DNA of 60,719 nt from positions 1 through 60,719 of IMG/VR virus record IMGVR_UViG_3300033143_005582; one strand, given 5' to 3'. Positions 3,002 through 51,879 of the stretch are shown here, piece by piece. The notes under the pieces are model-generated. The model was not told the DNA's origin. It saw nothing but the letters and a program-made list of their open reading frames with translations, and ran no database searches. The translations under genes were made by a program, and so were the position numbers. Each line of letters begins with the position of its first letter. The stretch's first letter is position 1. This stretch comes from a virus. Its lineage: Duplodnaviria; Caudoviricetes.

Positions 3002-4079
3002 TATTATATCAATTTTAGTCAATGGTATTAAATATACTGGTTGGACAGCAAATACAATTTTTAAAAGTTTAGAAACATTGAGTAATAGTTTTAATATTTC
3101 TTTAACTCCAAAATTTAAAAGTGATGGTTTTATAGATAATATCCCTATAGATGTTAATGATGAAATACAAGTTCTTATTGACAATGAACTCGTTATAAAT
3201 GGATTTATTGATTCTCGCAAAACTTCTTATAGTCATAATAAACATTCTATAAATATAACAGGAAGAAGTAGAATCTGTGATTTAGTAGATAGTGATTTAG
3301 TAGGAAATTTAAATTTAAATAAAGGTTATAGAGTATCAACTTTAATTCAAAAAATATTAAATAATTTAGGATTAACAAATATAAAAATATTTTTTGTAAA
3401 TGTTAGTGATGATATTTATGATGAAGATTTTAATTGTGGACGTGGAGAAAATGCATGGAAAGTTCTAAATGATTATTTACAAAAAAAAAGTATTTATGCT
3501 ATGACAGATGGTAATAGTGATATACTTTTATATAGAGGAAGTTTTGGGAATACTAATAAATCATTATTTCATACTAAAAATAAACCTGAATTGAACAATA
3601 TTTTAAGTGGAGTAGAAAATAAAAATAATATTGATAGATTTTATTCAATAAAAGTGATAAGTCAATTAGAGGCTAATATTTCAAGTGATAACTTTGAAAA
3701 TCAAACGGGAACTGCTTTTGATAAAAATATAAGAACTACAAGAAAAAGAGAAATTTTATCAAGAAATAGTTTAACAAGTAAAGAATGTTTAGATTTGGCA
3801 AAATTTGAAACTAATATTAGAAAAGCAAAAGGTTTTAGTTATGATTATACTATTTATGGATATAGACAAAGTGAAAATGGTTTATTATGGTCTACAAATT
3901 ATTTAATTGGAGTTAAAGATGATTATTTTTTTATTGATGATTATTTTTTAATAGAATCAGTTGAATTTACAAAAGATTTAAATGGAGGAAGTATAACTAA
4001 TTTAACTCTTGTTGATAAAAACTCTTATACTATACTTGAACCAAAAATAGAAAAAAGTACTAACCAATTAATTTTTTAA
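2994..4079 (+). CDS. Baseplate hub protein (Mu gpP/gp44-like)
   Basis: VNGIKYTGW, GFID, ITGRSRICDLVD, DRFYSI motifs; synteny. Confidence 0.88.
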   Translation: MNNIISILVNGIKYTGWTANTIFKSLETLSNSFNISLTPKFKSDGFIDNIPIDVNDEIQVLIDNELVINGFIDSRKTSYSHNKHSINITGRSRICDLVDSDLVGNLNLNKGYRVSTLIQKILNNLGLTNIKIFFVNVSDDIYDEDFNCGRGENAWKVLNDYLQKKSIYAMTDGNSDILLYRGSFGNTNKSLFHTKNKPELNNILSGVENKNNIDRFYSIKVISQLEANISSDNFENQTGTAFDKNIRTTRKREILSRNSLTSKECLDLAKFETNIRKAKGFSYDYTIYGYRQSENGLLWSTNYLIGVKDDYFFIDDYFLIESVEFTKDLNGGSITNLTLVDKNSYTILEPKIEKSTNQLIF

Positions 4080-4080
4080 A

Positions 4081-4524
4081 ATGATTCTTACTGCATTATT
4101 AAAACTTATAACAAATTTTGGAAAAGTTTTTCAAGTTTCTTATAATGGAAAAACTAAAAATAATATTAGGAATTTAAATTCTTATGGATTTTGGAGTAGT
4201 CCACCAAAAGGAAGTAAAGTTGTTTTAATTAGAGATTTTCATAGAAATTACTATGGAATTGCTTATAAAAATGATAAAATTCCTGAATTAAAAGAAGGTG
4301 AAACAATAATAGGTAATTTTAGTTTAGAATCATTTATTAAATTTAGTAAAACTGGAAAAATAAATATTTCTAATGAAAATCAAGATTTATTAACTTCTTT
4401 AACAGAACTAAAAACAGTTTTAAAAACATCAACATTTTCAGATAATACAACACCAGTTTTTGGAACTACAACTCAAACAGCTTTAGAAACATTTTTAACT
4501 AATTTAGAAAAATTATTGGAGTAA
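4081..4524 (+). CDS. Baseplate spike / assembly protein (Mu gp45-like)
   Basis: YGFWSSPPKGS and LKEGE motifs; synteny. Confidence 0.8.
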   Translation: MILTALLKLITNFGKVFQVSYNGKTKNNIRNLNSYGFWSSPPKGSKVVLIRDFHRNYYGIAYKNDKIPELKEGETIIGNFSLESFIKFSKTGKINISNENQDLLTSLTELKTVLKTSTFSDNTTPVFGTTTQTALETFLTNLEKLLE

Positions 4525-4526
4525 AT

Positions 4527-4988
4527 ATGGCAAATTTAGCATTTAAAAAAATAGGTGATAATAAATATCTTGATATTTATGTAGAAAATAAAAGTTTAGC
4601 TATTACAAAAGGTTTATGGTCTCAAGTTTTAATGTCTTTATTAAATGATAAAAGAGCAACAAATAGTCAAATTGTTATAAAAAAAGCACAAAGAGGGTGG
4701 CTTGGAAATCAAATTATTGGTGATATTCCTAATTATGAAATTGGTTCATGGTTATGGTTAGAAATAGAACAAAATGCTATTACTGAAAATGGACTTAAAA
4801 ATATTGAGAGATACTCTAAAGATTGCTTAAAATGGTTAGTAGATGATGGTTATTTGCAAGAAACAAAAACAGAAGTTTCTTCTGATACAAATGGTATTGT
4901 GTATTTAGATATTATTTTAATAATTAATCAAAATAATATTATTAAAAAAAGATTTAATCTTTGGATTGCTACATTTGAAGATTTATAG
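4527..4988 (+). CDS. Mu gp46-like baseplate protein
   Basis: VLMSLLNDKRA, RGWLG, IGSWLWL, LKWLVDDG. Confidence 0.87.
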   Translation: MANLAFKKIGDNKYLDIYVENKSLAITKGLWSQVLMSLLNDKRATNSQIVIKKAQRGWLGNQIIGDIPNYEIGSWLWLEIEQNAITENGLKNIERYSKDCLKWLVDDGYLQETKTEVSSDTNGIVYLDIILIINQNNIIKKRFNLWIATFEDL

Positions 4989-14633: not shown

Positions 14634-14860
14634 TATTTTACATAATTCTTTTTTATAATTTCCCAAAGAACATCTTGTCTATATCTCAATTTACAATCCT
14701 TAAGTATATATTTTTCATAAAAACTTTTAGGTAGAAGAATACTTACTCTAATCATTTCTTCTTTATAGGATTTTTTTCCTAAAGCTCTACCTATTTTTAG
14801 ATTACTTTTATTGTTATTGTATTGATTTAAGCTTTCTTTTAAAATTTTATTTTTACTCAT
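14633..14860 (-). CDS. Putative ribbon-helix-helix centromere-binding protein (type Ib ParB/ParG-like)
   Basis: Small ORF coupled to parA; IRVSILLPKSFYEK strand-helix pattern. Confidence 0.6.
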   Translation of the reverse strand: MSKNKILKESLNQYNNNKSNLKIGRALGKKSYKEEMIRVSILLPKSFYEKYILKDCKLRYRQDVLWEIIKKNYVK

Positions 14861-15648
14861 ATAATCTCCATTATTTCTTTTGATAAATTTAAATAGTCTT
14901 TAGCACCATGACATTTTGGACAATATTCAAAAATACTCTTGCCATAGTCTGGTGCTTCCTTTAATTTTACATTTTGTCTAATGTAAGTATCAAATACTTT
15001 GATATTATGTTCTTTGTTCTCATTTTTAGTAAAGACTTCTATTAATGCTCTTAAACAATCTTTAGCTTTATTGTTTCCATCGTGAAACGTCCCTAATATA
15101 CCTAAAATTTTCAAGTTTGGATTTAAGCCATTTTGTATTAAAGAAATTGAGTCTAATATACTGGCTGTTCCATCAAGTCCAAAGGGGGACAATTCAACAG
15201 GAATTAAAACATAATTTGAATATGCAAGAGAACTTGCTGATAAAATATTATCCGCAGGAGCATTATCTATAAAAATATAATCATATTTCCATTTCTCTAA
15301 ATCTTTTAATTTTCTTTTTAAAATTAATTCTCGTTGCTGTTCTGTAGAAACTAAAATATCAAAGTTTTTTAAATCTTGATGAGATGGGATAATTTCTAAG
15401 TTATTTTCTCTTAAAAAGATACATTCTTTTAAATAGCATTTATCAAATAAAAAAGCATTTATATTAAATTTGTCGTTATTTGCTCCCAAACTCGTTGACA
15501 AATTACATTGCGGATCTAAATCTATAATCAAAACTTTTTTATGTGCATTAGCAATAGCCTTTGCGAGGTTAAGAGTAGTGGTTGTTTTTCCAACTCCTCC
15601 TTTTAAGTTTAATACTGATATTATTTTTGTTTTCATTTTACTCCCCAT
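14857..15648 (-). CDS. parA: ParA/Soj partition ATPase
   Basis: KGGVGKTTT, LIIDLDPQ, YDYIFID, IRQNVKLKEAP. Confidence 0.95.
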   Translation of the reverse strand: MGSKMKTKIISVLNLKGGVGKTTTTLNLAKAIANAHKKVLIIDLDPQCNLSTSLGANNDKFNINAFLFDKCYLKECIFLRENNLEIIPSHQDLKNFDILVSTEQQRELILKRKLKDLEKWKYDYIFIDNAPADNILSASSLAYSNYVLIPVELSPFGLDGTASILDSISLIQNGLNPNLKILGILGTFHDGNNKAKDCLRALIEVFTKNENKEHNIKVFDTYIRQNVKLKEAPDYGKSIFEYCPKCHGAKDYLNLSKEIMEII

Positions 15649-15947: not shown

Positions 15948-16080
15948 TTACATAATTAAATAAATAACATAATAAATTATTATACACTTTATATTTTTAT
16001 GTGTCAAATATTTTATTACACAATTAAATAAATAGCACAATAAAATATATTGTGTTATTTATTTTAATACACTTTATATT
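15948..16080. repeat. Direct repeats around the par promoter (candidate centromere/operator)
   Basis: TTACAYAATTAAATAAATARCAYAATAAA at 15948 and 16016; ATACACTTTATATT at 15982 and 16067. Confidence 0.55.
15979..16007 (-). promoter_or_regulatory. Consensus sigma70 promoter of the par operon
   Basis: TTGACA-17-TATAAT on the minus strand. Confidence 0.8.
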
Positions 16081-17720: not shown

Positions 17721-18482
17721 TTATTTACCTTTTTTATTATTAAAATTTTTATTATTTAAACATACTTTTAATTGAACTGTATTATGTTCTAAATTATTAA
17801 GTATTTTTTGCAAACTTTCAAGATTATCTTTTGTAATGTCATTAACAATAATCTCTTTTGTATTCATATCTAAAAGTTTAATATCTTTTTGTATTTTGCC
17901 AATTAAATCGTTTTTAAAATTTTCTGTATTATCTAAAATAATTTCACTATCATCATCAAGAAGTATAACTTGATTTTTTAATTTGTTTTTTTTGGAAAAA
18001 TCCTCATTTCCTTTATACAAAATCGCATTAGTTGCCAATTCATCAGCTATTTCATTATATTTATTTCCATTATGGGCTTTTACCCATTGGAATTTAACAT
18101 TATGAACTTGTCTATGATAATCTAAATCTTCCCATAATTCCTTATTTTTAACAGGTTTTCTGTTAGATGTTTTCCAGCCGTTTAATTTCCAGTTTTTAAT
18201 CCATTTAGTAATACCATTTTTAACATATTGACTATCGGTATATATTAAAATATCTTTTTTAATTCGTTGAGTATTATTTATAAATTGTAAAGCTTTAATA
18301 ACTGCCGTTAATTCCATTTTGTTATTAGTGCTTTCTTTTTCATAACCGCTTAAATGATAGTCATCTGATTTTTTTTGTGTTTGTGTATCATTGTAAATAA
18401 TTATAGCTCCCCAACCGCCTTCCCCGGGGTTTGGGTTACAACCTCCATCTGTGTATATTTCTATGTCTATTTCTTTATTCAT
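17721..18482 (-). CDS. rnhA: Ribonuclease HI with C-terminal extension
   Basis: YTDGGCNPNPG, TNNKMEL, TDSQYV, WVKAHNG, NEIADELA. Confidence 0.95.
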   Translation of the reverse strand: MNKEIDIEIYTDGGCNPNPGEGGWGAIIIYNDTQTQKKSDDYHLSGYEKESTNNKMELTAVIKALQFINNTQRIKKDILIYTDSQYVKNGITKWIKNWKLNGWKTSNRKPVKNKELWEDLDYHRQVHNVKFQWVKAHNGNKYNEIADELATNAILYKGNEDFSKKNKLKNQVILLDDDSEIILDNTENFKNDLIGKIQKDIKLLDMNTKEIIVNDITKDNLESLQKILNNLEHNTVQLKVCLNNKNFNNKKGK

Positions 18483-19320
18483 TTTCAGTTTGATTGTTTA
18501 ATTCTTCTAATCCTGCGGTTTTGTTTAGTTTTTTGTTTAAATTAAAAAATTGATTATCAAAATCATCTAATTTTTTTGTTATACTCGCAAAATTTATTTT
18601 GCATATATTTCTTATAATTGTTTTTTTCATCATTTCAAATGGCCATTGTTTCCAAGTATAATCTTTCATTGTAGAAATATTTTTTGATTTATTTATTTTT
18701 TCAATAGACATAAAATTAGTTTGTTCACAAACTCTTTTTCCTTTTGTATAAGAAATTGTGCAATATGCTCCAATAATTGTATTTATTGTATTATTAAATA
18801 TATTTACTGGTTTATGACTTATATTTCTCATTCCGTTTACTAATTCTGTACTAAATTCATCTTCTTTTCTAACGAAACCTATATTATCAATATTAAAATC
18901 GGGATATTGTTGAGATACTTTATAAACATAACCACGCCAACCAATTTGAAGAGTTGCAGAATAACCCCCTATTTTATGTGTTCTTTTGCCATCTTTTTTT
19001 AAATACCAAGGTCTTGGAACCAAATAAGCATGTTCTCTTTTATCAATTGTTAAACCTAAATTTAAACAATCAACTACACTTTGTAATATTTGATTTTTTT
19101 TGCATTTTTGTAAATCTTTGCTTTTATAATATGCAGTTGAAACATCTTGAATTATTTTTTGAAATTCTTTACCGCTTTTAAAATATGGATTAAAAAATTT
19201 TCTAACATTAACTTTATTAAAATATTGCTTTACTGTATCATTTTCTTCCCAAGTTATTAATTGAACTTTTGTAGGTTCAATTGGTTTTTTTGGTGTCTTA
19301 ACCTTTAATTTTTCAGCCAT
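18475..19320 (-). CDS. recT: RecT-family single-strand annealing protein
   Basis: LGL..HAYLVP..LQIGWRGY..IGAY..WKQWPFEMMKKTIIR. Confidence 0.9.
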   Translation of the reverse strand: MAEKLKVKTPKKPIEPTKVQLITWEENDTVKQYFNKVNVRKFFNPYFKSGKEFQKIIQDVSTAYYKSKDLQKCKKNQILQSVVDCLNLGLTIDKREHAYLVPRPWYLKKDGKRTHKIGGYSATLQIGWRGYVYKVSQQYPDFNIDNIGFVRKEDEFSTELVNGMRNISHKPVNIFNNTINTIIGAYCTISYTKGKRVCEQTNFMSIEKINKSKNISTMKDYTWKQWPFEMMKKTIIRNICKINFASITKKLDDFDNQFFNLNKKLNKTAGLEELNNQTENE

Positions 19321-23057: not shown

Positions 23058-24320
23058 TTAAACAAACATACTAACATCATAATCAATATCTTTGCTTATT
23101 TTCGCTTTGCCTCTTGTAGTCTCGTTTGTAGTTTTAAAGTTATTCATAAATCTCAAACCTTTTCCGTGTCTTTTCACGTGTGCAGTAAAATTATCAAAAT
23201 TATAACCAAAAATCCTTTCTTTAAAGAATATATCAATAAACTTAGCTTCGTTCTTTTTAATAGCTTTTTCTGCGTGTAATTTATCTTCTCTATTTTGTTT
23301 ATCAATTTTTAACTCATCGCTTAAATTTGGATACTTTTGTTGTAGTTCGGGTGTCATTTCAATAATACCTTTGTTTTCAATACCAAACTTTTTTTGACAT
23401 TCAATTAAAAATTCTTCCATGTGTTGCGACATTTTTTGTTTGTTTAATTTTGTATCTTTATCATTCTCATAGTTAGGTTTTGGTTCGCTACAATTTTGTA
23501 GCCTTTCTTCCCAACGATTTAAAGAACTTATGAAAAGTGTCTTTAAAGTTTCAAAAATAGGATAAATCCAAAGTTTAATATCATACCAACCACAAAGTTT
23601 TTCAAAGTTCTTTTGTGTTAAATTTTGGCATAATTCAACAGCACGACCTTTGTAGAAATCATTATCAAAATCTTTTTCATACGGAACTGCACAACCTATT
23701 ATTCCGTATTTGAAAGAATTATCTATTTTATTTTGTATTACATTTTGATATTGATTTTGATTTATGTATTTAAACATAACTTCTTGATTTTCTTCATCAA
23801 CTCCCCAATTATTTTGTTTAAATTTGAAAAGATTAGTAGTTTTTGCCTCACAAACTGATTGCTCGTCCTTTTTTGCAAAAATTGGATTACCGAGTCTTTT
23901 AATTAAAGTTTCAGAGTTAAATTCATAATCTTTTTTAAGTTTAATAAAAATATCAGGTGTATAACTTGCCAATTTATGAAATTCAGGACATTTTATTAAT
24001 TCTTGCGGTTGGCAAGTTGCCTCTAAATAATCGCCACATTTAAAATTAATATATTTAGCAACAAACTTTTCCATTTCGTGTCCGAACAAACTTAAACTTT
24101 CGGGAAATTTTGAAGGTAGTGCCTTTCCTTTTTTATAATTATAAAGTCCAAAAGGACTCATAAATAATTTATCTTTTATAAATTCATCAGCCGAACCACT
24201 CATTGCTTGTCTTATTTCTTCTTCGGTGCATTCGGATTTAATAACTGTTGATATTTCACTTGCACCAACATATTTTAAGCGTTCTTTCAGCCACCTTTCT
24301 TTTTGTTCTTCATTTTGCAT
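23058..24320 (-). CDS. YqaJ / lambda-exonuclease-family 5'-3' exonuclease
   Basis: WLKERLKYVGASE, GHEME, SYTPD, EAKTT, Y..Q.Q.Q; likely start ATG 24320 after a GAGGG RBS. Confidence 0.85.
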   Translation of the reverse strand: MQNEEQKERWLKERLKYVGASEISTVIKSECTEEEIRQAMSGSADEFIKDKLFMSPFGLYNYKKGKALPSKFPESLSLFGHEMEKFVAKYINFKCGDYLEATCQPQELIKCPEFHKLASYTPDIFIKLKKDYEFNSETLIKRLGNPIFAKKDEQSVCEAKTTNLFKFKQNNWGVDEENQEVMFKYINQNQYQNVIQNKIDNSFKYGIIGCAVPYEKDFDNDFYKGRAVELCQNLTQKNFEKLCGWYDIKLWIYPIFETLKTLFISSLNRWEERLQNCSEPKPNYENDKDTKLNKQKMSQHMEEFLIECQKKFGIENKGIIEMTPELQQKYPNLSDELKIDKQNREDKLHAEKAIKKNEAKFIDIFFKERIFGYNFDNFTAHVKRHGKGLRFMNNFKTTNETTRGKAKISKDIDYDVSMFV

Positions 24321-24483
24321 TTTTATATCCCTCTTTTTTATTTCTAAATAATCTTTCAACAAAGTAAACATTGTTTTTTTTCTTTTCTTCTCTTTCTTCG
24401 TTGAATTTTTTTAACCCCTTTTCTTTTCTTTCTAATTCTTCTTTAAGATAATTAGAAAAAATTTCTATTTTTAGTTTTCCCAT
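24310..24483 (-). CDS. Small hypothetical protein
   Basis: Likely start ATG 24483 after an AAGGG RBS. Confidence 0.45.
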   Translation of the reverse strand: MGKLKIEIFSNYLKEELERKEKGLKKFNEEREEKKKNNVYFVERLFRNKKEGYKNAK

Positions 24484-28997: not shown

Positions 28998-29285
28998 ATG
29001 ATTAAAAAAATTTTAAAAAAAATAAAATCTTTTTTCATAAGTCTTTTTAAAGGATTAAAAATAAAATCTTTTTATAAAAAAATAAAACCAAAATCAAAAA
29101 TATTAAAAGATATAAAAAGATTACAGGAAAATAAAATCAAAAAAGAAAAAGAAATCAAAGAATTACGAGTCTTTTTAAGAAAAGATAAGACTAATAATTG
29201 GCAAAACTTTTTAAAGACAAGAAAAAACTTAAATTTGAAAAGAAAATATATTCATACAAAATTCAATACTTATTTTATAGTATGA
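28998..29285 (+). CDS. Lys-rich hypothetical protein
   Basis: ORF downstream of a promoter and UUCG hairpin; low complexity. Confidence 0.4.
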   Translation: MIKKILKKIKSFFISLFKGLKIKSFYKKIKPKSKILKDIKRLQENKIKKEKEIKELRVFLRKDKTNNWQNFLKTRKNLNLKRKYIHTKFNTYFIV

Positions 29286-29344
29286 ATAAATTAAAAGAAA
29301 TTTCCATATGTTCACATAGGTTTTTAATAAATAAAGGGTTTAAA

Positions 29345-29998
29345 ATGGAAATAAATAATCAAAATATAGGTAAAATAAAATTAATTTCTCTAAAAAAGAC
29401 TAAAAAAGACTTTTTGTTTTTTAAAGAAATATTTGGTAATAAAGATATAATGAAAACTATATCATTATATGATCGCAAGGTTTCAAAGAAAAATTTTAGA
29501 AAAGATTTTGATTTAAGAAATTGTACTCATAAAAAGTATAATTTAGGGAGTTATAAAATAACTAATGATAAAAATGATATTATAGGTATAACCTCCTTAC
29601 TTTTGTTAAAAACAAATAAACAAAATCAACCAACAATTTTAGAATTTGAATATTTTATAAGTCCAAAATTTCAATCAAAAAGAATAGGGAGTGATACGGC
29701 AAAATTCCTTATAGACTATGCTTTTAAAAATTTCCTCAAAGTGAAAAGGATATATGCAACAGCTTTAACTGACAATTTTCCATCTCAAATCATCATGCAC
29801 AGATTAGGTTTTAAATATATTGGAAAAAAACAAAGAAAAGATGGTGGACTAGTTAATTTAAGATATATTACAAAATTTAGATTTTATTTAAACAAAATCA
29901 AACCTTTCAAAAGAAAAACCAATTATTATATTAAATTGATTAAAAAACTAAATAAAAAGAAATCAAAAATAAACTTATATAATACTCAAGATTTATAG
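29345..29998 (+). CDS. GNAT (RimJ/RimL-like) N-acetyltransferase
   Basis: EFEYFISPKFQSKRIG, IYATALTDNFPSQIIMHRLGF; likely start ATG 29345. Confidence 0.85.
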   Translation: MEINNQNIGKIKLISLKKTKKDFLFFKEIFGNKDIMKTISLYDRKVSKKNFRKDFDLRNCTHKKYNLGSYKITNDKNDIIGITSLLLLKTNKQNQPTILEFEYFISPKFQSKRIGSDTAKFLIDYAFKNFLKVKRIYATALTDNFPSQIIMHRLGFKYIGKKQRKDGGLVNLRYITKFRFYLNKIKPFKRKTNYYIKLIKKLNKKKSKINLYNTQDL

Positions 29999-30918
29999 TT
30001 TTTGATTAAATTAATTAAAAAATCAAGGTTTTCATCTATATATTTGCCTTTTTTAACCAAAATCGCATAATTAAATTCAGAAAAAAGTTCAGGACAATAT
30101 TTATAAATCAATTCTTTTTTATCAATTTCATTTATAAAAAAATCGCCAACAGAAGACAAACAAGTATTGGTTTTTACTATTTTTTTTGCTATATCCCAAT
30201 TTCCTTTGTCTAAATTGATATTAATTTTATTGTTATGCGTATTGATAAAGCTTTTGTACATATCTGATACCATGTAGTTGCTTATATGAAAAAATTTGAA
30301 GTCTTTTATTTCATTTATTGATATTGTATTTTTTTCAATTTCATTCAACTTATGTTTTTTATTTGCAATTATAACTAATTTGAATTTAAAAATTGGTATA
30401 AAGTTAAATTCAGGTATAATTTCTTCATTTTCTTTAAAAGGATAAATAAGAATGTCTAAATTATCATTTTGAAGTTTTTTTAAAGCTTCTATTTTTGGTA
30501 AATTGTAAATATTTATTTTTGTTTTTTGATATTTATCAGAGTGTAATTTTAAAAGATTAGGCAGTATATTTGAAATTGCTGTATAATGAACCCCAATATT
30601 TATATTTTGTAATTTTATATTTTTTACTTTTGTTAAAAATTCCTCAAAAATTCCGTCGGCATCTTGAATTAAACGAATTGCTTTATCATATAAAGCCTTT
30701 CCTTTATCATTTACTATTAATTTTTTACCCTTTCTTTTAAATAATTGCATTCCTAAATCAATCTCAAGCGACTTAATTTGTACTGAAATAGTTGATTGGT
30801 CTAAACCCATTCTTTCGGAAGCTTTTTTTGTTGTCCCTTCTTGAATTGTATAACAAAAGCCTTTTAACTGCTGTAATCGGCTTTTTTTGTAATAAAATTG
30901 TTTTAAATTACACTGCAT
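29986..30918 (-). CDS. LysR-family transcriptional regulator
   Basis: HTH ASERMGLDQSTISVQIKSLEIDLGMQLFKR plus substrate-binding domain; start ATG 30918 because TTGACA-16-TATATT overlaps the longer start. Confidence 0.93.
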   Translation of the reverse strand: MQCNLKQFYYKKSRLQQLKGFCYTIQEGTTKKASERMGLDQSTISVQIKSLEIDLGMQLFKRKGKKLIVNDKGKALYDKAIRLIQDADGIFEEFLTKVKNIKLQNINIGVHYTAISNILPNLLKLHSDKYQKTKINIYNLPKIEALKKLQNDNLDILIYPFKENEEIIPEFNFIPIFKFKLVIIANKKHKLNEIEKNTISINEIKDFKFFHISNYMVSDMYKSFINTHNNKININLDKGNWDIAKKIVKTNTCLSSVGDFFINEIDKKELIYKYCPELFSEFNYAILVKKGKYIDENLDFLINLIKNYKS

Positions 30919-31001
30919 ATTAATTTTATTAATTAATAAATTATTATTATTAATATAACTCACTTTACTTAATTGTCAATTAAATTAATATATTAATTAA
31001 C

Positions 31002-35336: not shown

Positions 35337-35960
35337 GAAATATTCCCAAAATATTCCTACTTGACAAATGCTTGACAAAATATAAAGATTTTTATTGCAA
35401 AAATCCCGAACTCCGCATTAATTCCTAATCTCTGTGCTTGACGGGTACTTGATTTCTACTTGATGAGTACTTGCTAATTACTTGCTAATTACTTGCTAAT
35501 TACTTGCTGTTTACATAATTTGAAAAAAACACCAGTTGAAAACACTGATAAACATTGAGTTTTATTAAAAAGCAACTGGTGTTTTTTTTAAATAATATCA
35601 GTTAAAAGAAAAAAAACACCAGTTGATTCTTATTTGATAAATTGGCGACTGACATCAATGTCATTTGCAAAATACCCTTTATTAATCAATGTTTCTTTAT
35701 TTGATGGTTATTTGATTTTGTGAGGGACATTGATGTCCCTCACTAAATTTTACTTGCTAATTTACTTGCAAACGCTAATGCAAGTTAAAATTAAATCCAT
35801 ATTTTAAGCGGGTTTTGGGCAGTTTAACTTGCTTTTCATCTCTTTTTATGTGTTTTATGAGTATCTAAATGTTTTGTATGTGTTAGACGAGTAGCATATA
35901 GCAAAATCAACTTTATAATATGCTAATTTTTTAGCATAAAGTAGACAATATGCAAAAAAA
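35337..35960. repeat. Non-coding mosaic of phased iterons and inverted repeats
   Basis: Seven (A/G)CTTG units at 11-bp spacing (35436-35506); AAAAAAACACCAGTTG x3; GACATCAATGTC inverted pair; GCAAGTTAAA inverted pair. Confidence 0.85.
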
Positions 35961-35961
35961 C

Positions 35962-35989
35962 TTGACAATTAAATAAAAACTAATATTAT
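35962..35989 (+). promoter_or_regulatory. Sigma70 promoter
   Basis: TTGACA-16-TATTAT upstream of the HTH gene. Confidence 0.65.
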
Positions 35990-36029
35990 ATTTATATAAA
36001 ACGTGGTATACAATAATATTATATTAGTT

Positions 36030-36212
36030 ATGAAAGGAAAAGAATTTAAAGAAATACGATTAAGATTAGGTTTATCAATGCCAAAACTCGGTAAGGAAAT
36101 AGGTAAATCATCTAATCAGATATTTCTATATGAAAAAGATAAAGCTAAAATCCCATTATCAATTGAAAGATTAATGAGAAATTTTGATATTAATAATGTT
36201 AAAAAGAAATGA
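36030..36212 (+). CDS. XRE/Cro-like HTH regulator
   Basis: FKEIRLRLGLSMPKLGKEIG..IFLYE..IP. Confidence 0.85.
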   Translation: MKGKEFKEIRLRLGLSMPKLGKEIGKSSNQIFLYEKDKAKIPLSIERLMRNFDINNVKKK

Positions 36213-36766
36213 ACGAATATAGAAAAATCTTTAGAGAAATACAAGGATACAAACTATTTCCATCTTTTGAAAAAAAAGATAGTGAAAAAGCTATAAAATT
36301 AATAGAAAAATATTCTTGGGCTGTTCCTAATAAAAAAGCTATAAAAGAAATATGTAAATTTGGTGCTATTATTGAAATTGGAGCAGGTGGAGGATATTGG
36401 GCAAGTTTAATCAAAAAAGCTGGTGGTAATATTATTGCTTATGATAATTTATCAACTCATCAATTAAAAAATACAAAATATTGGTTTAAAGTAAAATATG
36501 GAAGTTTTGAGAAAATAAAACAACATAAAAATAGAATATTATTTTTATGTTTTCCTCCATGCAAAAGCAATATGGCTTTTGATTGTTTAAATAATTATAC
36601 AGGAGAATATTTTTTATATATTGGAGAGGAATTAGAAGGATGTAAAGGAAATGAAAGTTTTTTTAATGAAATTTTTGAAAATTGGAATTTAATAAAAACT
36701 ATTGATATACCTTCTTATGGTGGAGTTTTTGATAGTTTATTTATTTATAAAAGAAAAGTTAAATAG
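36209..36766 (+). CDS. Class I SAM-dependent methyltransferase-like protein
   Basis: YSWAVP, IEIGAGGGYWA, LFLCFPP, YIGE. Confidence 0.75.
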   Translation: MNEYRKIFREIQGYKLFPSFEKKDSEKAIKLIEKYSWAVPNKKAIKEICKFGAIIEIGAGGGYWASLIKKAGGNIIAYDNLSTHQLKNTKYWFKVKYGSFEKIKQHKNRILFLCFPPCKSNMAFDCLNNYTGEYFLYIGEELEGCKGNESFFNEIFENWNLIKTIDIPSYGGVFDSLFIYKRKVK

Positions 36767-36768
36767 AA

Positions 36769-36978
36769 ATGTACCAAAAACAAACTGACAAATTAAAATC
36801 TTTTTATACTCACCACTGGGTATTTTTTGACAAAAAAGGGCAAATCATAGAAAAATGTCCATGCACCATAAAAGAAAAAAACTCAAGTGCTGAAAGTTAT
36901 AAAAATGAAATATGTGCAGATAGTTTTGAAAAAGTAAAGAATACTCTTGAAAAAGGGATGCAAGTGGGTTTTTCTTAA
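36769..36978 (+). CDS. Hypothetical protein
   Basis: ORF in operon. Confidence 0.45.
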   Translation: MYQKQTDKLKSFYTHHWVFFDKKGQIIEKCPCTIKEKNSSAESYKNEICADSFEKVKNTLEKGMQVGFS

Positions 36979-37027
36979 TGTCGGGAAAAATCCTAATTAT
37001 TAAATATTAATTAAATGAAAGGACGAT

Positions 37028-37450
37028 ATGAAGAAAAAGACATTAGATGAATTTTTAAAAGAAATTAATAGAGAAGAAAGCGAAATTAAAACAATATACT
37101 CTTATGAAGAGTGTAAATTAGCAGTTCAACAAGACGGCTATATTTTGAGATATGTCAAAGAACAAACAGAAGAAATTTGTAAATTAGCAGTTCAACAAAA
37201 CGGCGATAGTTTGAGATATGTCAAAGAACAAACAGAAGAAATTTGTAAATTAGCAGTTCAACAAAACGGCGATAGTTTGCAATATGTCAAAGAACAAACA
37301 GAAGAAATTTGTAAATTAGCTGTTCAACAAGACGGCGATAGTTTGAGATATGTCAATAAAAATATTTTTGTTAAATATGGTTCTTGCGAGAAACAAAAGC
37401 GAATTAAAGAATTAGAGAAAGAATTGAAAGAACTAAAACAATCTAAATAA
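37028..37450 (+). CDS. DUF4116-type tandem-repeat protein
   Basis: About four 66-bp units CKLAVQQ(D/N)GDSL(R/Q)YVKEQTEEI from 37112. Confidence 0.8.
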   Translation: MKKKTLDEFLKEINREESEIKTIYSYEECKLAVQQDGYILRYVKEQTEEICKLAVQQNGDSLRYVKEQTEEICKLAVQQNGDSLQYVKEQTEEICKLAVQQDGDSLRYVNKNIFVKYGSCEKQKRIKELEKELKELKQSK

Positions 37451-37491
37451 CATTTAGTTATTTAGAGATAATAATTAAAAAGAAAAGTGAT

Positions 37492-37707
37492 ATGATAGAT
37501 ATAAACACTTATGATTATGATATAATTAAGTTGACCCTCTTAAATCCCAAAAAAGTAAAAGATGAGTTGATGAAAAAATTAGAAGATGAAAAAGACCCAT
37601 TTTACAATGAAGGATGCGAGGAAAATAGTGAAGAAGCAGAAAAAAAGAAAAAGGCTTATGCTGATATAGAAACAAAATTACAAGAATTAGAATTTATTAA
37701 TGTTTAA
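37492..37707 (+). CDS. Acidic hypothetical protein (cassette unit)
   Basis: Between stem-loops 1 and 2. Confidence 0.6.
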   Translation: MIDINTYDYDIIKLTLLNPKKVKDELMKKLEDEKDPFYNEGCEENSEEAEKKKKAYADIETKLQELEFINV

Positions 37708-37765
37708 GAAAATCTAAATAGAATTTATTTATTTAGAATAAATAATAATTAAATATAAGGTAAAA

Positions 37766-38056
37766 ATGTTAAAAATTGAAGAATTATTAAATGAATTAGA
37801 GAATAGTTATAGGATAAATAGAGAAATTATTGTTGTTAATAAAGAAATAGATACATTAAAAATAAAAAAAGAAAGTATAAAAAAGGCAATGGAAATTACA
37901 GATAGTAAAAAAGAACGAATGAGAAAAGATATTCTTGTTGTTGAGGGAGTAATAAAAGATAGAGAAGAAAATATAATAAATAAGTTAACTTTTTATGAAG
38001 ATGAGAAATTAGAAGAAATAAGAACTAAAATTATAAAGCTAAAACAATCTAAATAA
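37766..38056 (+). CDS. Coiled-coil hypothetical protein (cassette unit)
   Basis: Between stem-loops 2 and 3; ends LKQSK like 37028-37450. Confidence 0.6.
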   Translation: MLKIEELLNELENSYRINREIIVVNKEIDTLKIKKESIKKAMEITDSKKERMRKDILVVEGVIKDREENIINKLTFYEDEKLEEIRTKIIKLKQSK

Positions 38057-38091
38057 CAATTAAGTTATTTAGAGAGTAATAAAGGGAAACA

Positions 38092-38280
38092 ATGGAACAA
38101 AAAACAAATACCATAAAAAAACTTTTCTTTAATTACTTCTGCTTCAAAAAAGATAAAATTGAAGAAGAAAATATGGAAGAGCTCTTAAGAGAAGGGGAGA
38201 AAAGACGAGAAGCTTTTGTACAAAGCTTAATAAAAAAAGAATTTGAACAAAAAGATTTTCAAACCCTAAATAACAATTAA
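38092..38280 (+). CDS. Hypothetical protein (cassette unit)
   Basis: Between stem-loops 3 and 4; RBS AAGGG. Confidence 0.55.
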   Translation: MEQKTNTIKKLFFNYFCFKKDKIEEENMEELLREGEKRREAFVQSLIKKEFEQKDFQTLNNN

Positions 38281-38421
38281 GTTGTTTAGAGAATAAATAA
38301 AGAGAATTAAATGTTAGGAGATGCTTTAGATAAAAAAAATAAAGGAACTTATAAAAGAATTAAATAAACAATCTAAATAGGAACTTATCCTATTTAGAAT
38401 ATTAACAAACAATAAAGGGAA

Positions 38422-38676
38422 ATGATGAGTATAAAAACATTTGAAGAGTTAGAGAAAAAATTAGAAATATACGGATTTAGACATAATGATAGTTTACAAA
38501 ACCCAGCTTGTGTTGATGACAGCGGATTAAATTTAATTGAAAAAGGAAACGGCGAAGCTACTTTAAGATTGCATACAGACTTTGGTAAATTTTGGAGTTT
38601 CCCTAAGGCGAAGTATCATTTAATTTTTAATCTCATAAACTCAATTAAAGCATTAAAGGAGTGTGAAGATGAATGA
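38422..38676 (+). CDS. Hypothetical protein
   Basis: After stem-loop 5; RBS AAGGGA. Confidence 0.55.
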   Translation: MMSIKTFEELEKKLEIYGFRHNDSLQNPACVDDSGLNLIEKGNGEATLRLHTDFGKFWSFPKAKYHLIFNLINSIKALKECEDE

Positions 38677-49731: not shown

Positions 49732-50566
49732 TAGTTATTCTAAAAAAGAAACTGTTGAAAAGAAAATAGCACTTGAAAGTATTTTTGCTCCCGAAATTGC
49801 AAGATATCTAAATAAAATTAAAAATGATTTTAAAAAGGTTTATACGGCTACAGGATTACTTATTAATCCTGATGAGTATATAGATAGTACAACAGAATTA
49901 TTAAAAAAACATTATACAAGAGTTGCAAAAGTTTTTGATAAAAACTTGCGTGACAATATGACAGAAACAAAACAATTTGAAGAAGCAAAAGACAAAGAAT
50001 TAAAAAAAGTTGATAAAATAATAAGTGCATCTTTAATAATTTTTATACTTCAACAATCAAAAAAAAGAGCAAGATTTTTAATTAAAACAACAACAAAAGA
50101 AATAAGAGAAAAATTAAGAGATGTAAAACAAATTCTTTTTAAGGATAATGTTATAAATCCAACTAATAAACAAATTGCTGATGAAACAAGTAAATTATTA
50201 GACAAATCTTTTAAAGGTAGAAAAGAGACGATTGCTATTTCTGAAACTGAATTTATGGCAGAAAGTACAAAAACTATTGAATCTAATACTTTACAAGACA
50301 AACAACCATTCAAAGGTTTTACAATTCCTTTAGTTTTAAGTTTTTTCAATAAAACTGGGACAAAAGAATGGCGTGCTGTTTTAGATAGTAAAACTCGTCC
50401 TGCCCATGTAGTCGCTGATGGACAAGTTAAAAAAATTAATGAACCTTTTGAAGTTGATAATGAATTACTTATGTATCCTTCCGACTCGTCTCTTGGGGCA
50501 AGTATAGAAAATACTATTAATTGTCGTTGCGGACAAGATATTAAATTAAAATGGAGTAAAAAATGA
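49715..50566 (+). CDS. Minor head protein (Mu F / SPP1 gp7-like)
   Basis: KEW..VLDSKTRPAH..DGQ..INCRC. Confidence 0.88.
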   Translation: MEILFNSYSKKETVEKKIALESIFAPEIARYLNKIKNDFKKVYTATGLLINPDEYIDSTTELLKKHYTRVAKVFDKNLRDNMTETKQFEEAKDKELKKVDKIISASLIIFILQQSKKRARFLIKTTTKEIREKLRDVKQILFKDNVINPTNKQIADETSKLLDKSFKGRKETIAISETEFMAESTKTIESNTLQDKQPFKGFTIPLVLSFFNKTGTKEWRAVLDSKTRPAHVVADGQVKKINEPFEVDNELLMYPSDSSLGASIENTINCRCGQDIKLKWSKK

Positions 50567-51879
50567 AAAATAAAGAAAATAAATTTTTAAAGTTAGATGA
50601 TACAGATTTTTATTGGAATTCAATTATGATGTTTAATGAATTTAATAAAGATAGTAGTTTTGGAGTTTTTGCAAATATAATAAAAGCTTATAAAGATAAT
50701 GATAAAGATATAAATTTATTTATTAACTCTTATGGTGGAGTTGTTGATGATTTATTAGTAATGATTGATGCGATGAATCTTGTTAAAAACGATATTGCTA
50801 CGATAGGTTTGGGTTGTTGTGCAAGTTGCGGAGCCGTTCTTTTGGCAAGTGGTACTAAAGGAAAACGTTTTATGACTGAGAACGCAAGAGTTATGATACA
50901 TCAAGTATCTGCATGGGCTATTGGAAAAAATAGTGATATACAAATAAGAGCTAAAGAAGTTGACAGAATTAATAAACAAATAGCATCTATTTTAGCAAAA
51001 GCAACTGGAAAATCTAAAAAACAAATACTTGAAGATTTTAAAGAAGATAAATGGTTTACTGCAAAAGAGGCTCTTGAATATGGTTTAATTGATAAAATTA
51101 TTACTCCAAAAGATATTAAATCTCCTGAATTAGAAAAAAAGGATTTAAATAAAAATACAGATTCTAATTTTGTTTTTAATTATGAATTAAAATCTTTTGA
51201 AGAAGATGATGAATATTATAGATTAAAAGGTATTGCTTCAACTCCTGAAAAAGACTTATGTTATGATATAGTAAAACAAGAAGCTTTAATTGATTCTGTT
51301 GAAAAATACGGATTACCAAGTTTTCTACATTTACATAATCAATTAGAAGCTCCTTTAGGTAATATAGATGAAGTTTATTTAGAAAATGGTAAAACTGTTA
51401 TTGAAGCAAAAATGCCAAAAGGTGTTAAAGATAATGATGAAATTGCTATTTTAATTAAAGACGGAGCTTATAAAGGGCTTTCAATTGGTTATTCTGTTTT
51501 AAAATATCATCACGAAAATGATATAAGGGTTATAACTGAAATTATGTGGCACGAAACAAGTTTAGTATCTGTTCCTTGTAATCCTAATGCAAAATTACAA
51601 GAATTTAAAAATAAAGATTTAAAAAAGAAATCTGAAAATGTTAAATTTATTAAAAATATTAAATCTTTAAAAGAATTAGAAGAAGTATTAAAAAGTTATG
51701 GTTTAACAAATAGAGAAATTTTGGCTTGCATTTATAAAATTAAAGAGTTAGCTTTAAATAAAGATACTGCTCCGACAAGTGATTTGTCAGAAAATCCCCT
51801 GCCTGTAAGTGATTTACAAGCTCTAAACGAAAAAGCTAAAATTTTACAAAACACAATTAATAATATTATAGGTAAATAA
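50563..51879 (+). CDS. ClpP (S14) + HK97 prohead protease (S78) fusion
   Basis: INSYGG, ASCG, MIHQ, DKWFTAKEALEYGLID; then GIAS, LHNQ, GLSIGY, ETSLVSVPCN. Confidence 0.9.
   Translation: MKNKENKFLKLDDTDFYWNSIMMFNEFNKDSSFGVFANIIKAYKDNDKDINLFINSYGGVVDDLLVMIDAMNLVKNDIATIGLGCCASCGAVLLASGTKGKRFMTENARVMIHQVSAWAIGKNSDIQIRAKEVDRINKQIASILAKATGKSKKQILEDFKEDKWFTAKEALEYGLIDKIITPKDIKSPELEKKDLNKNTDSNFVFNYELKSFEEDDEYYRLKGIASTPEKDLCYDIVKQEALIDSVEKYGLPSFLHLHNQLEAPLGNIDEVYLENGKTVIEAKMPKGVKDNDEIAILIKDGAYKGLSIGYSVLKYHHENDIRVITEIMWHETSLVSVPCNPNAKLQEFKNKDLKKKSENVKFIKNIKSLKELEEVLKSYGLTNREILACIYKIKELALNKDTAPTSDLSENPLPVSDLQALNEKAKILQNTINNIIGK

Follow-up and report, generated by a model that had tools for sequence, protein, structure and literature searches.

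A compact array of related hairpins between orphan genes of a low-GC phage

What might five related hairpins do that stand between consecutive genes of a single phage operon? The question is raised by the IMG/VR virus record IMGVR_UViG_3300033143_005582 (Duplodnaviria; Caudoviricetes), which has direct terminal repeats, a 100% completeness rating and a GC content of about 25%. Its 60,719 bases were analysed at full length and are called the window here. A preliminary description of the sequence had pointed out five stem-loops at 37442..38398 and offered two interpretations, namely a gene-capture array that recalls a miniature integron, or repeated sites of mRNA processing or protein binding. 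Their sequences and coordinates are exactly as it gave them, and the array is a well-supported sequence feature. What is observed is that it exists, that it is unique, where it is placed, how its fold is conserved, and that promoters, U-tracts and recombinases are absent; beyond this, we infer a role at the RNA level and a history of recombination.

A family of five hairpins

The hairpins, called hp1 to hp5, are listed below with the flank of the first copy. Arms are written on either side of the loop, and bit scores are those of the covariance model described further on.

37433..37441, plus strand: conserved A-rich 5′ flank of the repeat unit, CTAAAACAA
37442..37466, plus strand: hp1, TCTAAATAAC-ATTTA-GTTATTTAGA; stop codon of the DUF4116 gene (37448-37450) in the 5′ arm; 54.1 bits
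37713..37737, plus strand: hp2, TCTAAATAGA-ATTTA-TTTATTTAGA; one G-U pair on the plus strand; upstream stop codon at 37705-37707; 44.8 bits
38048..38073, plus strand: hp3, TCTAAATAAC-AATTAA-GTTATTTAGA; stop codon of a 96-aa open reading frame (ORF) at 38054-38056, in the 5′ arm; 58.9 bits
38265..38290, plus strand: hp4, CCTAAATAAC-AATTAA-GTTGTTTAGA; 9 pairs, one of them U-G, with the outermost C/A unpaired; stop codon of a 62-aa ORF (38278-38280) in the loop; 51.4 bits
38372..38398, plus strand: hp5, TCTAAATAGGA-ACTTA-TCCTATTTAGA; 11 pairs, with the inner stem altered on both sides; 50.9 bits

Each hairpin is AT-rich and 25-27 nt long, with a 9-11-bp stem, a 5-6-nt loop and the outer stem TCTAAATA/TATTTAGA. 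All five have the same orientation and fall within 957 bases (37442-38398). In an alignment, the repeat unit extends to about 40 nt and its columns are on average 80% identical. Almost no change is seen in the eight outermost pairs, with exceptions in hp4 alone (a C as first base, and one A changed to G); what varies is the loop, the flank on either side and the innermost two or three pairs. The A-rich 5′ flank of the module carries TAA in all three frames.

The hairpins lie on or just past stop codons and ahead of an A-rich leader and an ATG, and this placement, which the preliminary description had reported, was confirmed at all five. The stop codon used by the upstream frame is in the 5′ arm (hp1 and hp3), in the loop (hp4), 5 nt before the stem (hp2) or 4 nt before it (hp5, where it closes an 18-codon mini-ORF), and the gene ends read the repeat unit in differing frames. 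From hp1 to hp5, the next ATG follows the stem at 25, 28, 18, 20 and 23 nt, and is preceded by a purine-rich stretch that resembles a Shine-Dalgarno (SD) sequence. A 14-mer, AAACAATCTAAATA, is identical in hp1, hp3 and hp5 and encodes K-Q-S-K-stop in one frame. The K-Q-S-K-stop ending common to two unrelated proteins and a closed frame is due to this shared 14-mer.

The hairpins form a genuine family that did not arise by chance. The pattern CTAAATA-N6-16-TRTTTAG matches nine times in the genome, corresponding to the five plus-strand sites and four minus-strand re-reads of the same palindromes, and every match is inside 37443-38397. The expected number is 0.09 (sd 0.49), and none of 100 shuffled sequences reached nine. 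A covariance model made from the five copies was run on both strands of the window with filters off. It scores its own copies at 44.8-58.9 bits, by construction, and, minus-strand re-reads aside, there is no sixth copy in the genome (the best other match has 19.6 bits and an E-value of 0.22).

Folding of the isolated plus strand as RNA gives the same hairpin in all five copies, and all five are also present in the minimum-free-energy and centroid structures of a 1,081-nt RNA fold of the block. From hp1 to hp5, the energies are -9.2, -6.8, -11.2, -8.3 and -12.7 kcal/mol, the z-scores are -4.64, -1.73, -6.12, -3.85 and -7.22, and 0, 12, 0, 1 and 0 of 200 shuffled sequences fold as well as the copy itself. 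In the alignment, 49 of 50 paired cells pair, versus 34-54% when the partners are slid. Six of the ten pairs never vary and two inner pairs change on both sides (three cells), in keeping with the compensatory changes that had been claimed; hp5 has an extra pair. The inner stem is self-complementary in every copy, and the chance of its seven pairs is about 0.0016 at local composition if pairs are assumed to be independent.

The strands differ in how well they fold. Both one-sided changes, in hp2 and hp4, give G-U pairs on the plus strand, as the preliminary description had stated, and A-C mismatches on the minus strand, where the energy of hp2 is only -4.4 kcal/mol, a value reached by 24 of 200 shuffles. 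Under DNA parameters, neither of the copies with a G-T pair outperforms shuffled sequences (hp2: z -0.65, 48/200; hp4: -3.3, z -1.01, 32/200), and the hairpin is not the minimum-energy fold of hp2 as single-stranded DNA. A convincing fold as single-stranded DNA is thus seen in only three of the five copies, versus five as RNA. Given that all copies fold as RNA, that G-U pairs occur on the plus strand only, that the G-T copies fold weakly as DNA and that the inner stem is kept complementary, a sense-strand fold is favoured, and RNA over DNA, albeit on thin evidence. In this respect the plus-strand (mRNA-sense) fold looks selected, as had been proposed for a single-stranded structure.

Searches for further copies gave no multi-copy occurrence among the IMG/VR matches listed, the JGI metagenomes, 185,579 species genomes or 401 sampled genomes. 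A loose pattern matched at least 112 stretches in IMG/VR, and among the 199 loci collected, three had two separate sites, all in unrelated sequences. Stringent patterns found nine and two single sites in IMG/VR, all unrelated on inspection, two single sites in the 185,579 species genomes and five unrelated single sites in JGI metagenome contigs. The 401 genomes, which belong to one phylum, include seven with one site each, fewer than a reversed control matched. DNA searches of phages and plasmids match the DUF4116 repeats only, and there is no Rfam family at the gathering score or at E ≤ 10.

Relatives of neighbouring and more distant genes do not carry the family either. The 185-aa neighbour of the array has no IMG/VR match, and the 131-aa neighbour matches two loci (38-39% identity) in which genes are tightly packed and there is no hairpin family. 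The methylase led to 80 loci, all at 41% identity or less, and the terminase to 13 loci (48-62% identity) on contigs of 30-44% GC with no hairpin copy. By terminase, Dulem virus 31 is the closest phage in GenBank (64%); it has a different gene order and no hairpin copy. The preliminary description had proposed a covariance-model search of other genomes; the model finds the five copies alone in this genome and nothing at E ≤ 1 in 15 loci of distant kin (177,216 bases), where a generic finder also detected no hairpin family.

A crude base-rate scan looked for at least three hairpins of at least nine pairs that share an outer 8-mer. In 2.2 Mb, consisting of the 60.7-kb window and a non-random sample of 221 other loci, it found two other families, both of them tandem repeats rather than junction hairpins. 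A repeat of about 58 bp at 3343-4900 of one extremely AT-rich metagenome contig (L222, 16% GC) contains a short hairpin in at least six copies, which are unrelated to the array. A small set of word searches in an open-access library yielded no description of this hairpin family or of a promoter-less, terminator-less array of such a kind.

Operon context and intervening genes

Each hairpin is at a gene end in one co-directional plus-strand operon, whose relevant features are as follows.

35962..35989, plus strand: best sigma-70-like promoter match of the region, TTGACA-16-TATTAT; a consensus match only
36966..36993, plus strand: GGGTTTTTC...GGAAAAATCC, a junction hairpin not related in sequence to hp1-hp5, immediately before the array; overlaps the stop codon of ORF 36769-36978; -12.6 kcal/mol in the junction
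37028..37450, plus strand: gene 1, a 140-aa DUF4116 repeat protein (PF13475, E 3.6e-26) that ends in LKQSK
37492..37707, plus strand: gene 2, a 71-aa orphan; matches only itself among 5.77 billion clusters; no family
37766..38056, plus strand: gene 3, a 96-aa orphan that ends in LKQSK; matches only itself among 5.77 billion clusters; no family
38092..38280, plus strand: gene 4, a 62-aa orphan; matches only itself among 1.84 billion representatives in an exhaustive HMMER search
38311..38367, plus strand: 18-codon mini-ORF in the 81-nt spacer between hp4 and hp5, which may be a remnant unit
38422..38676, plus strand: first gene past the array, 84 aa, with which a stretch of tight or overlapping gene packing begins

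Junctions were counted in a crude gene chain built from plus-strand frames only. This chain fills 31-47 kb, and no minus-strand gene was called there. Between 36003 and 40577 it has 15 junctions. Five consecutive ones measure 35-141 nt and all bear hairpins, and the remaining ten measure -14 to +7 nt. In order, the long junctions contain the unrelated hairpin at 36966-36993, then hp1, hp2 and hp3, and finally hp4 and hp5, which share one. The leader after the unrelated hairpin resembles the leader after hp2 (73-76% over 37 nt).

Downstream of a GC-rich terminator (35720-35743), the promoter match at 35962-35989 probably marks where the array-bearing operon starts, judging from its sequence. 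It is followed by a helix-turn-helix (HTH) gene (36003-36212), a methyltransferase-like gene (36209-36766) and the 69-aa ORF at 36769-36978. The methyltransferase-like gene encodes the 185-aa neighbour mentioned above, which has a glycine motif like that of S-adenosylmethionine methyltransferases. Its relatives in phage databases are restricted to haloarchaeal viruses (31-37% identity; one is annotated as AdoMet-MTase) and one uncultured phage.

The hairpins are neither plus-strand intrinsic terminators nor promoter cassettes. Their stems are AT-rich, the 8 nt past the stem contain 2, 2, 2, 2 and 3 T from hp1 to hp5, and a plus-strand terminator scan flagged none of the five; the hairpin at 36966-36993 is the only terminator-like site of the block on this strand. 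The preliminary description had concluded from the lack of U-tracts that the hairpins do not terminate transcription. The lack of U-tracts holds for the plus strand, but the description overlooked that on the minus strand four of the five stems are followed by a T-rich tail (6 T in 8 nt), and that hp5, alone among them, passes the terminator rule there. Promoter-like sites in 36900-38480 are at the level of shuffled sequences (10 versus 8.6 ± 2.9). There is no plus-strand promoter match at hp2 to hp5, and the hp1 junction alone has weak ones (9/12).

The genes that the hairpins separate are unrelated to one another, as had been claimed. An all-against-all BLASTP comparison of 17 local ORFs revealed no convincing likeness among array genes; the best match (E 0.002) involves K/E-rich proteins in a 17-sequence database without composition correction. 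The three genes tested against large collections (71, 96 and 62 aa) are orphans. The DUF4116 protein belongs to a known family, and its C-terminal 45 residues are shared with no protein. At 37112-37356 its gene contains 3.7 copies of a 66-nt unit. Since these copies are 94% identical, they point to a very recent internal duplication adjoining the hairpin array, as far as can be read from the sequence.

The spacer between hp4 and hp5 holds, in a frame other than that of the mini-ORF, a start-less frame that ends in KQSK. The preliminary description had taken it as a decayed unit, a view with weak support. The 14-nt identity behind this idea is real, but beyond the shared core the spacer has no significant likeness to the 3′ ends of the genes (p 0.21-0.89). 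A comparison with the leader and start of the DUF4116 gene gave p 0.02, uncorrected over nine tests.

The statement that no integrase is present was borne out by profile searches of the complete 60,719-bp genome. There are no matches to tyrosine recombinases (PF00589; 14 of 14 control genomes positive), Y1 transposases (PF01797; 6 of 14) or serine recombinases (PF00239; 12 of 14). One ORF that was suspected to be an integrase (29986-30963) is identified by its profile as a LysR-type regulator. Two genes on the recombination side are as follows.

18475..19320, minus strand: RecT-family annealing protein (PF03837, E 9.5e-23)
23058-24371: weak YqaJ-like domain (E 3.8e-4, under the Pfam cut-off)

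Upstream of the operon, 666 nt of non-coding sequence (35337-36002) separate it from the methylase gene. They contain iterons at 35446-35508, i.e., about 5.5 tandem 11-bp units (TACTTGCTAAT), with more TACTTG(A/C) copies elsewhere in the region, a long hairpin with A/T flanks, and the GC-rich terminator and promoter match given above. From its sequence, this region looks like an iteron-type origin, a centromere or an operator region.

Readings of the array

We tentatively favour the reading that the array consists of a locally amplified stop-hairpin-leader module that acts in polycistronic mRNA, in its processing, stability or binding, and that recombination like that of the PeSL elements of T4-like phages is a by-product. 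Of the two interpretations that the preliminary description had offered, this is the mRNA one. The five hairpins would be copies of one module of about 40 nt, made up of an A-rich flank, a 9-11-bp stem-loop and an A-rich leader with an SD-like stretch. Local amplification of this module would have led it to separate consecutive orphan genes in the single plus-strand operon of an integrase-less, low-GC phage or phage-plasmid. Most likely, the stem-loop would serve as an intercistronic element in the polycistronic mRNA. It might protect the end left by an endonucleolytic cut in the A-rich flank, insulate the downstream ribosome-binding site, or be the binding site of a sequence-specific RNA-binding protein. 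About 40 nt is enough for annealing-type recombination. Because the copies share this length, they could supply the homology for it, and gain or loss of intervening genes is a plausible by-product.

The RNA fold, its pairing and its strand preference speak for this reading, as do the lack of promoters in the module and of plus-strand T-tracts. The outer 8 bp of the stem are near-invariant while the inner stem, loop and flanks vary, and five consecutive long junctions with hairpins contrast with ten compact ones. There is also a precedent, in that stem-loops at gene 3′ ends set segment stability in operons of Clostridium whose RNA is selectively processed and stabilized (SRPS), as described in two reports (PMC4423207, PMC8219983).

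Several points weigh against it. A purely structural, end-protecting hairpin has no need of a near-invariant outer stem. Since end protection alone fails to explain this stem, its conservation suggests that the module was duplicated and spread recently or that it has a sequence-specific partner. Stop codons take different positions relative to the stem, and hence the translational geometry is not fixed. The covariation is modest, given that there are only five copies and that these are of common ancestry, and 15 of 500 column shuffles equal it. The plus-strand preference amounts to two of two transitions, which has a chance of 0.25, and hp2 folds weakly even as RNA. Finally, no recognised RNA-binding protein or RNase is seen among the proteins of the operon.

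In the chief alternative, recombination would be the main role. The unit of about 40 nt would then be a homology patch, like a PeSL, at which orphan genes lacking promoters are inserted, deleted, duplicated or circularised by RecT annealing. On either side of the copies are unrelated genes without homologues, the unit is read in three different frames and supplies a stop each time, and the spacer between hp4 and hp5 is gene-less at 81 nt. In addition, the adjoining gene contains a near-perfect 66-nt triplication, the genome encodes RecT, and the same order of stop, AT-rich stretch, stem-loop, SD and start occurs between the ORFans described in one PeSL report (PMC2839356). We nevertheless consider this reading unlikely. 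No repeat-bearing relative was found in our searches, so no hairpin-bounded indel is observable; the spacer does not resemble other gene ends (p 0.21 at best), homology alone leaves the compensated stem unexplained, and PeSLs have a strong promoter and a terminator whereas hp1 to hp5 have the sequence signals of neither. Given that RecT anneals, we infer only that it is a candidate agent for recombination between repeats of about 40 nt. The mRNA module and PeSL-like recombination are mutually compatible, and a still more doubtful reading unites them in an integrase-free gene-cassette array, in which the module would be both mRNA punctuation and a RecT annealing substrate and would let the phage capture, delete and reorder promoterless orphans in one operon. 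If true, a small phage or phage-plasmid of low GC content would have a pared-down counterpart to PeSL shuffling, one that lacks promoters. A site-specific recombinase acting on a miniature integron-like attC array, by contrast, is almost certainly not involved. Like integron attC arrays, this one has co-oriented promoterless genes, each followed by an imperfectly conserved palindromic site that folds from one strand, and AAC...GTT, on which the preliminary description had based its analogy, is present in three of the five copies. However, attC sites are about 57-141 nt long, with R''/L''-L'/R' boxes, extrahelical bases and a GTT at the cassette boundary. The array sites are far shorter (25-27 nt), their stems are perfect and lack bulges, and the triplets are at the wrong end of the stem, at its apex beside the loop, and are missing from hp2 and hp5. 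Because the genome is also without an integrase, a Y1 transposase or a serine recombinase, the analogy fails. What stands of the preliminary interpretation is the real family, the apparently selected plus-strand fold, its difference from canonical plus-strand terminators and the unrelated orphans.

Other readings dispense with both mRNA punctuation and gene shuffling. The hairpins could be operator- or centromere-like palindromes in duplex DNA, TCTAAATA-N9-11-TATTTAGA, bound by a dimeric protein such as the HTH protein (36003-36212) or a partner of ParA. Phage-plasmids have dispersed palindromic centromere sites, the outer 8-bp half-sites are the best-conserved part, the HTH gene opens the operon and ParA is encoded in the genome. 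This is improbable, in that the spacing of half-sites varies by 2 bp (9, 9, 10, 10 and 11), the spacer is kept self-complementary, which duplex binding does not need, and the loop and flanks are asymmetric and in a single orientation. Moreover, there is no cluster of half-sites near any promoter, and the iterons at 35446-35508 are a better candidate. Just as improbable are functionless look-alikes left by a recent local duplication of a gene end with its hairpin. These would fit with the location of all copies within 1 kb and none elsewhere in the genome, with their high identity and with the tandem duplication active next door. However, a simple tandem duplication would not produce this layout, because the intervening genes are unrelated; the outer stem is spared by the changes, those of the inner stem are compensated, and the five punctuated junctions contrast with the ten compact ones. 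Slightly less probable again are intrinsic terminators or insulators on the minus strand, acting against antisense transcription through the block. In their favour are the six T in 8 nt behind four of the five stems, the fit of hp5 to the terminator rule, and the conserved 5′ flank, which would serve as a U-tract. We rate this reading low because the strand is T-rich throughout (the chance of at least 6/8 is 0.135), three copies share the flank by descent, hp2 and hp4 are mismatched on this strand, with the weakened energy of hp2 given above, and no minus-strand gene was called in 31-47 kb in the plus-strand-frame chain; five terminators in 1 kb would also be redundant. It is very unlikely that the hairpins are decoys, released from mRNA to titrate a hairpin-binding protein of the host, for example as mimics of CRISPR repeats like the viral solitary repeat units (SRUs) or RNA anti-CRISPRs (Racrs). 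The stem base and flank are conserved and the top is free, as in repeat hairpins recognised by proteins, the block of orphan accessory genes contains several copies, and Racrs are phage-encoded, repeat-like intergenic hairpins with a conserved stem base, as described in one report (PMC10651486). In contrast to these, the array is multi-copy rather than solitary, has no promoter of its own and resembles none of the curated CRISPR repeat families among the Rfam families searched at E ≤ 10, and there is no multi-copy stem array in the 401 sampled genomes or, with a longer pattern, in the 185,579 species genomes.

Some further candidates were rejected. The spacings (271, 335, 217 and 107 nt) are irregular and the intervals are coding, which does not correspond to a CRISPR array. 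The copies are dispersed between genes and thus are not tandem iterons or an origin, for which the array at 35446-35508 is the better candidate. RNase III sites in T7 early mRNA comprise about two helical turns of duplex RNA between cistrons, and the 9-11-bp stems are too short for this. Recoding signals would need a fixed stop-to-stem geometry. REP-type intercistronic palindromes occur across whole host genomes in connection with RAYT transposases; this phage has five copies in 1 kb and none outside it and no Y1 transposase (PF01797), and the genomes searched have single sites only.

Among known systems, the array resembles repeated intergenic stem-loop modules of phages more than an integron. 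The closest are the PeSLs of T4-like phages (Arbiol et al. 2010, PMC2839356; Comeau et al. 2014, PMC4122927). According to these reports, PeSLs are likewise repeated short intergenic modules with an upstream stop, an AT-rich stretch, a stem-loop with some G-T pairs, an SD and a start, and small ORFan genes are likewise where they cluster. Experiments have demonstrated indels and mini-circles mediated by PeSLs. The same accounts give PeSLs a strong sigma-70 promoter, whereas there is no promoter signal at four of the five array junctions, and a stable, transcription-terminating stem that often has a G/C tract. The array has hairpins in this position, but they are AT-rich, have energies of -6.8 to -12.7 kcal/mol and are followed by 2-3 T in 8 nt, without a U-tract. 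A genome has about 50 PeSLs, in several regions, versus five hairpins in 1 kb here.

ESAS elements of Cluster K mycobacteriophages (Pope et al. 2011, PMC3203893) also share properties with the array. They are imperfect inverted repeats with a variable short spacer, in one orientation, just upstream of the starts of some non-structural genes, and their function was still unknown at the time of the report. Unlike the array, with its 9-11-bp arms of unrelated sequence, ESAS elements have GC-rich arms of 17 bp, linked to a 13-bp SAS motif that is located at the ribosome-binding site; they occur over half of the genome and are conserved along with gene families across relatives. The array has no SAS-like motif and merely an SD-like stretch of the ordinary kind. 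PeSLs and ESAS are known examples of inverted repeats that recur upstream of non-structural genes in phages. The SRPS stem-loops of Clostridium, as described in the reports cited above, are also hairpins without U-tracts directly past stop codons in polycistronic operons, but they differ individually in sequence, whereas the array is one sequence family.

Repeated intergenic stem-loop modules are one of the few mechanisms proposed for the swapping of orphan genes in phages and for expression tuning in long operons, and they have been documented mainly in T4-like phages, as PeSLs. The array is an unusually compact and clean case, with five copies in one operon, no promoters and no recombinase. 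If its hairpins set mRNA ends or mark recombination junctions, then the RNA-fold and short-homology parts of such modules would be separable from the promoter and terminator part, and about 1 kb would provide a portable test bed.

Other features of the phage genome

The minus strand holds replication and recombination genes, which encode a ParA-type ATPase, RNase H, RecT, the protein with the weak YqaJ-like domain, and DnaB. The long plus-strand run of small genes includes YopX, a NUMOD4 protein and a fusion of ParB-N with a DNA methylase, and downstream of this run are terminase, portal, a ClpP-like prohead protease and the capsid protein.

The ParA-type ATPase gene is at 14857-15648 on the minus strand. 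Given that the complete genome has this gene yet no integrase, the phage may be maintained as a plasmid-like prophage. Upstream of the parA-like gene, at 16026-16064, there is a 39-nt palindrome with a 17-pair stem (G-U allowed), AAATAAATAGCACAATA...TATTGTGTTATTTATTT, a possible operator, centromere or bidirectional terminator.

A GNAT acetyltransferase and the LysR-type regulator, within 29198-30963, are apparent cargo. The prohead protease ORF (50563-51879, 438 aa) combines a ClpP-family domain and a weak S78 prohead-protease match in a single protein.

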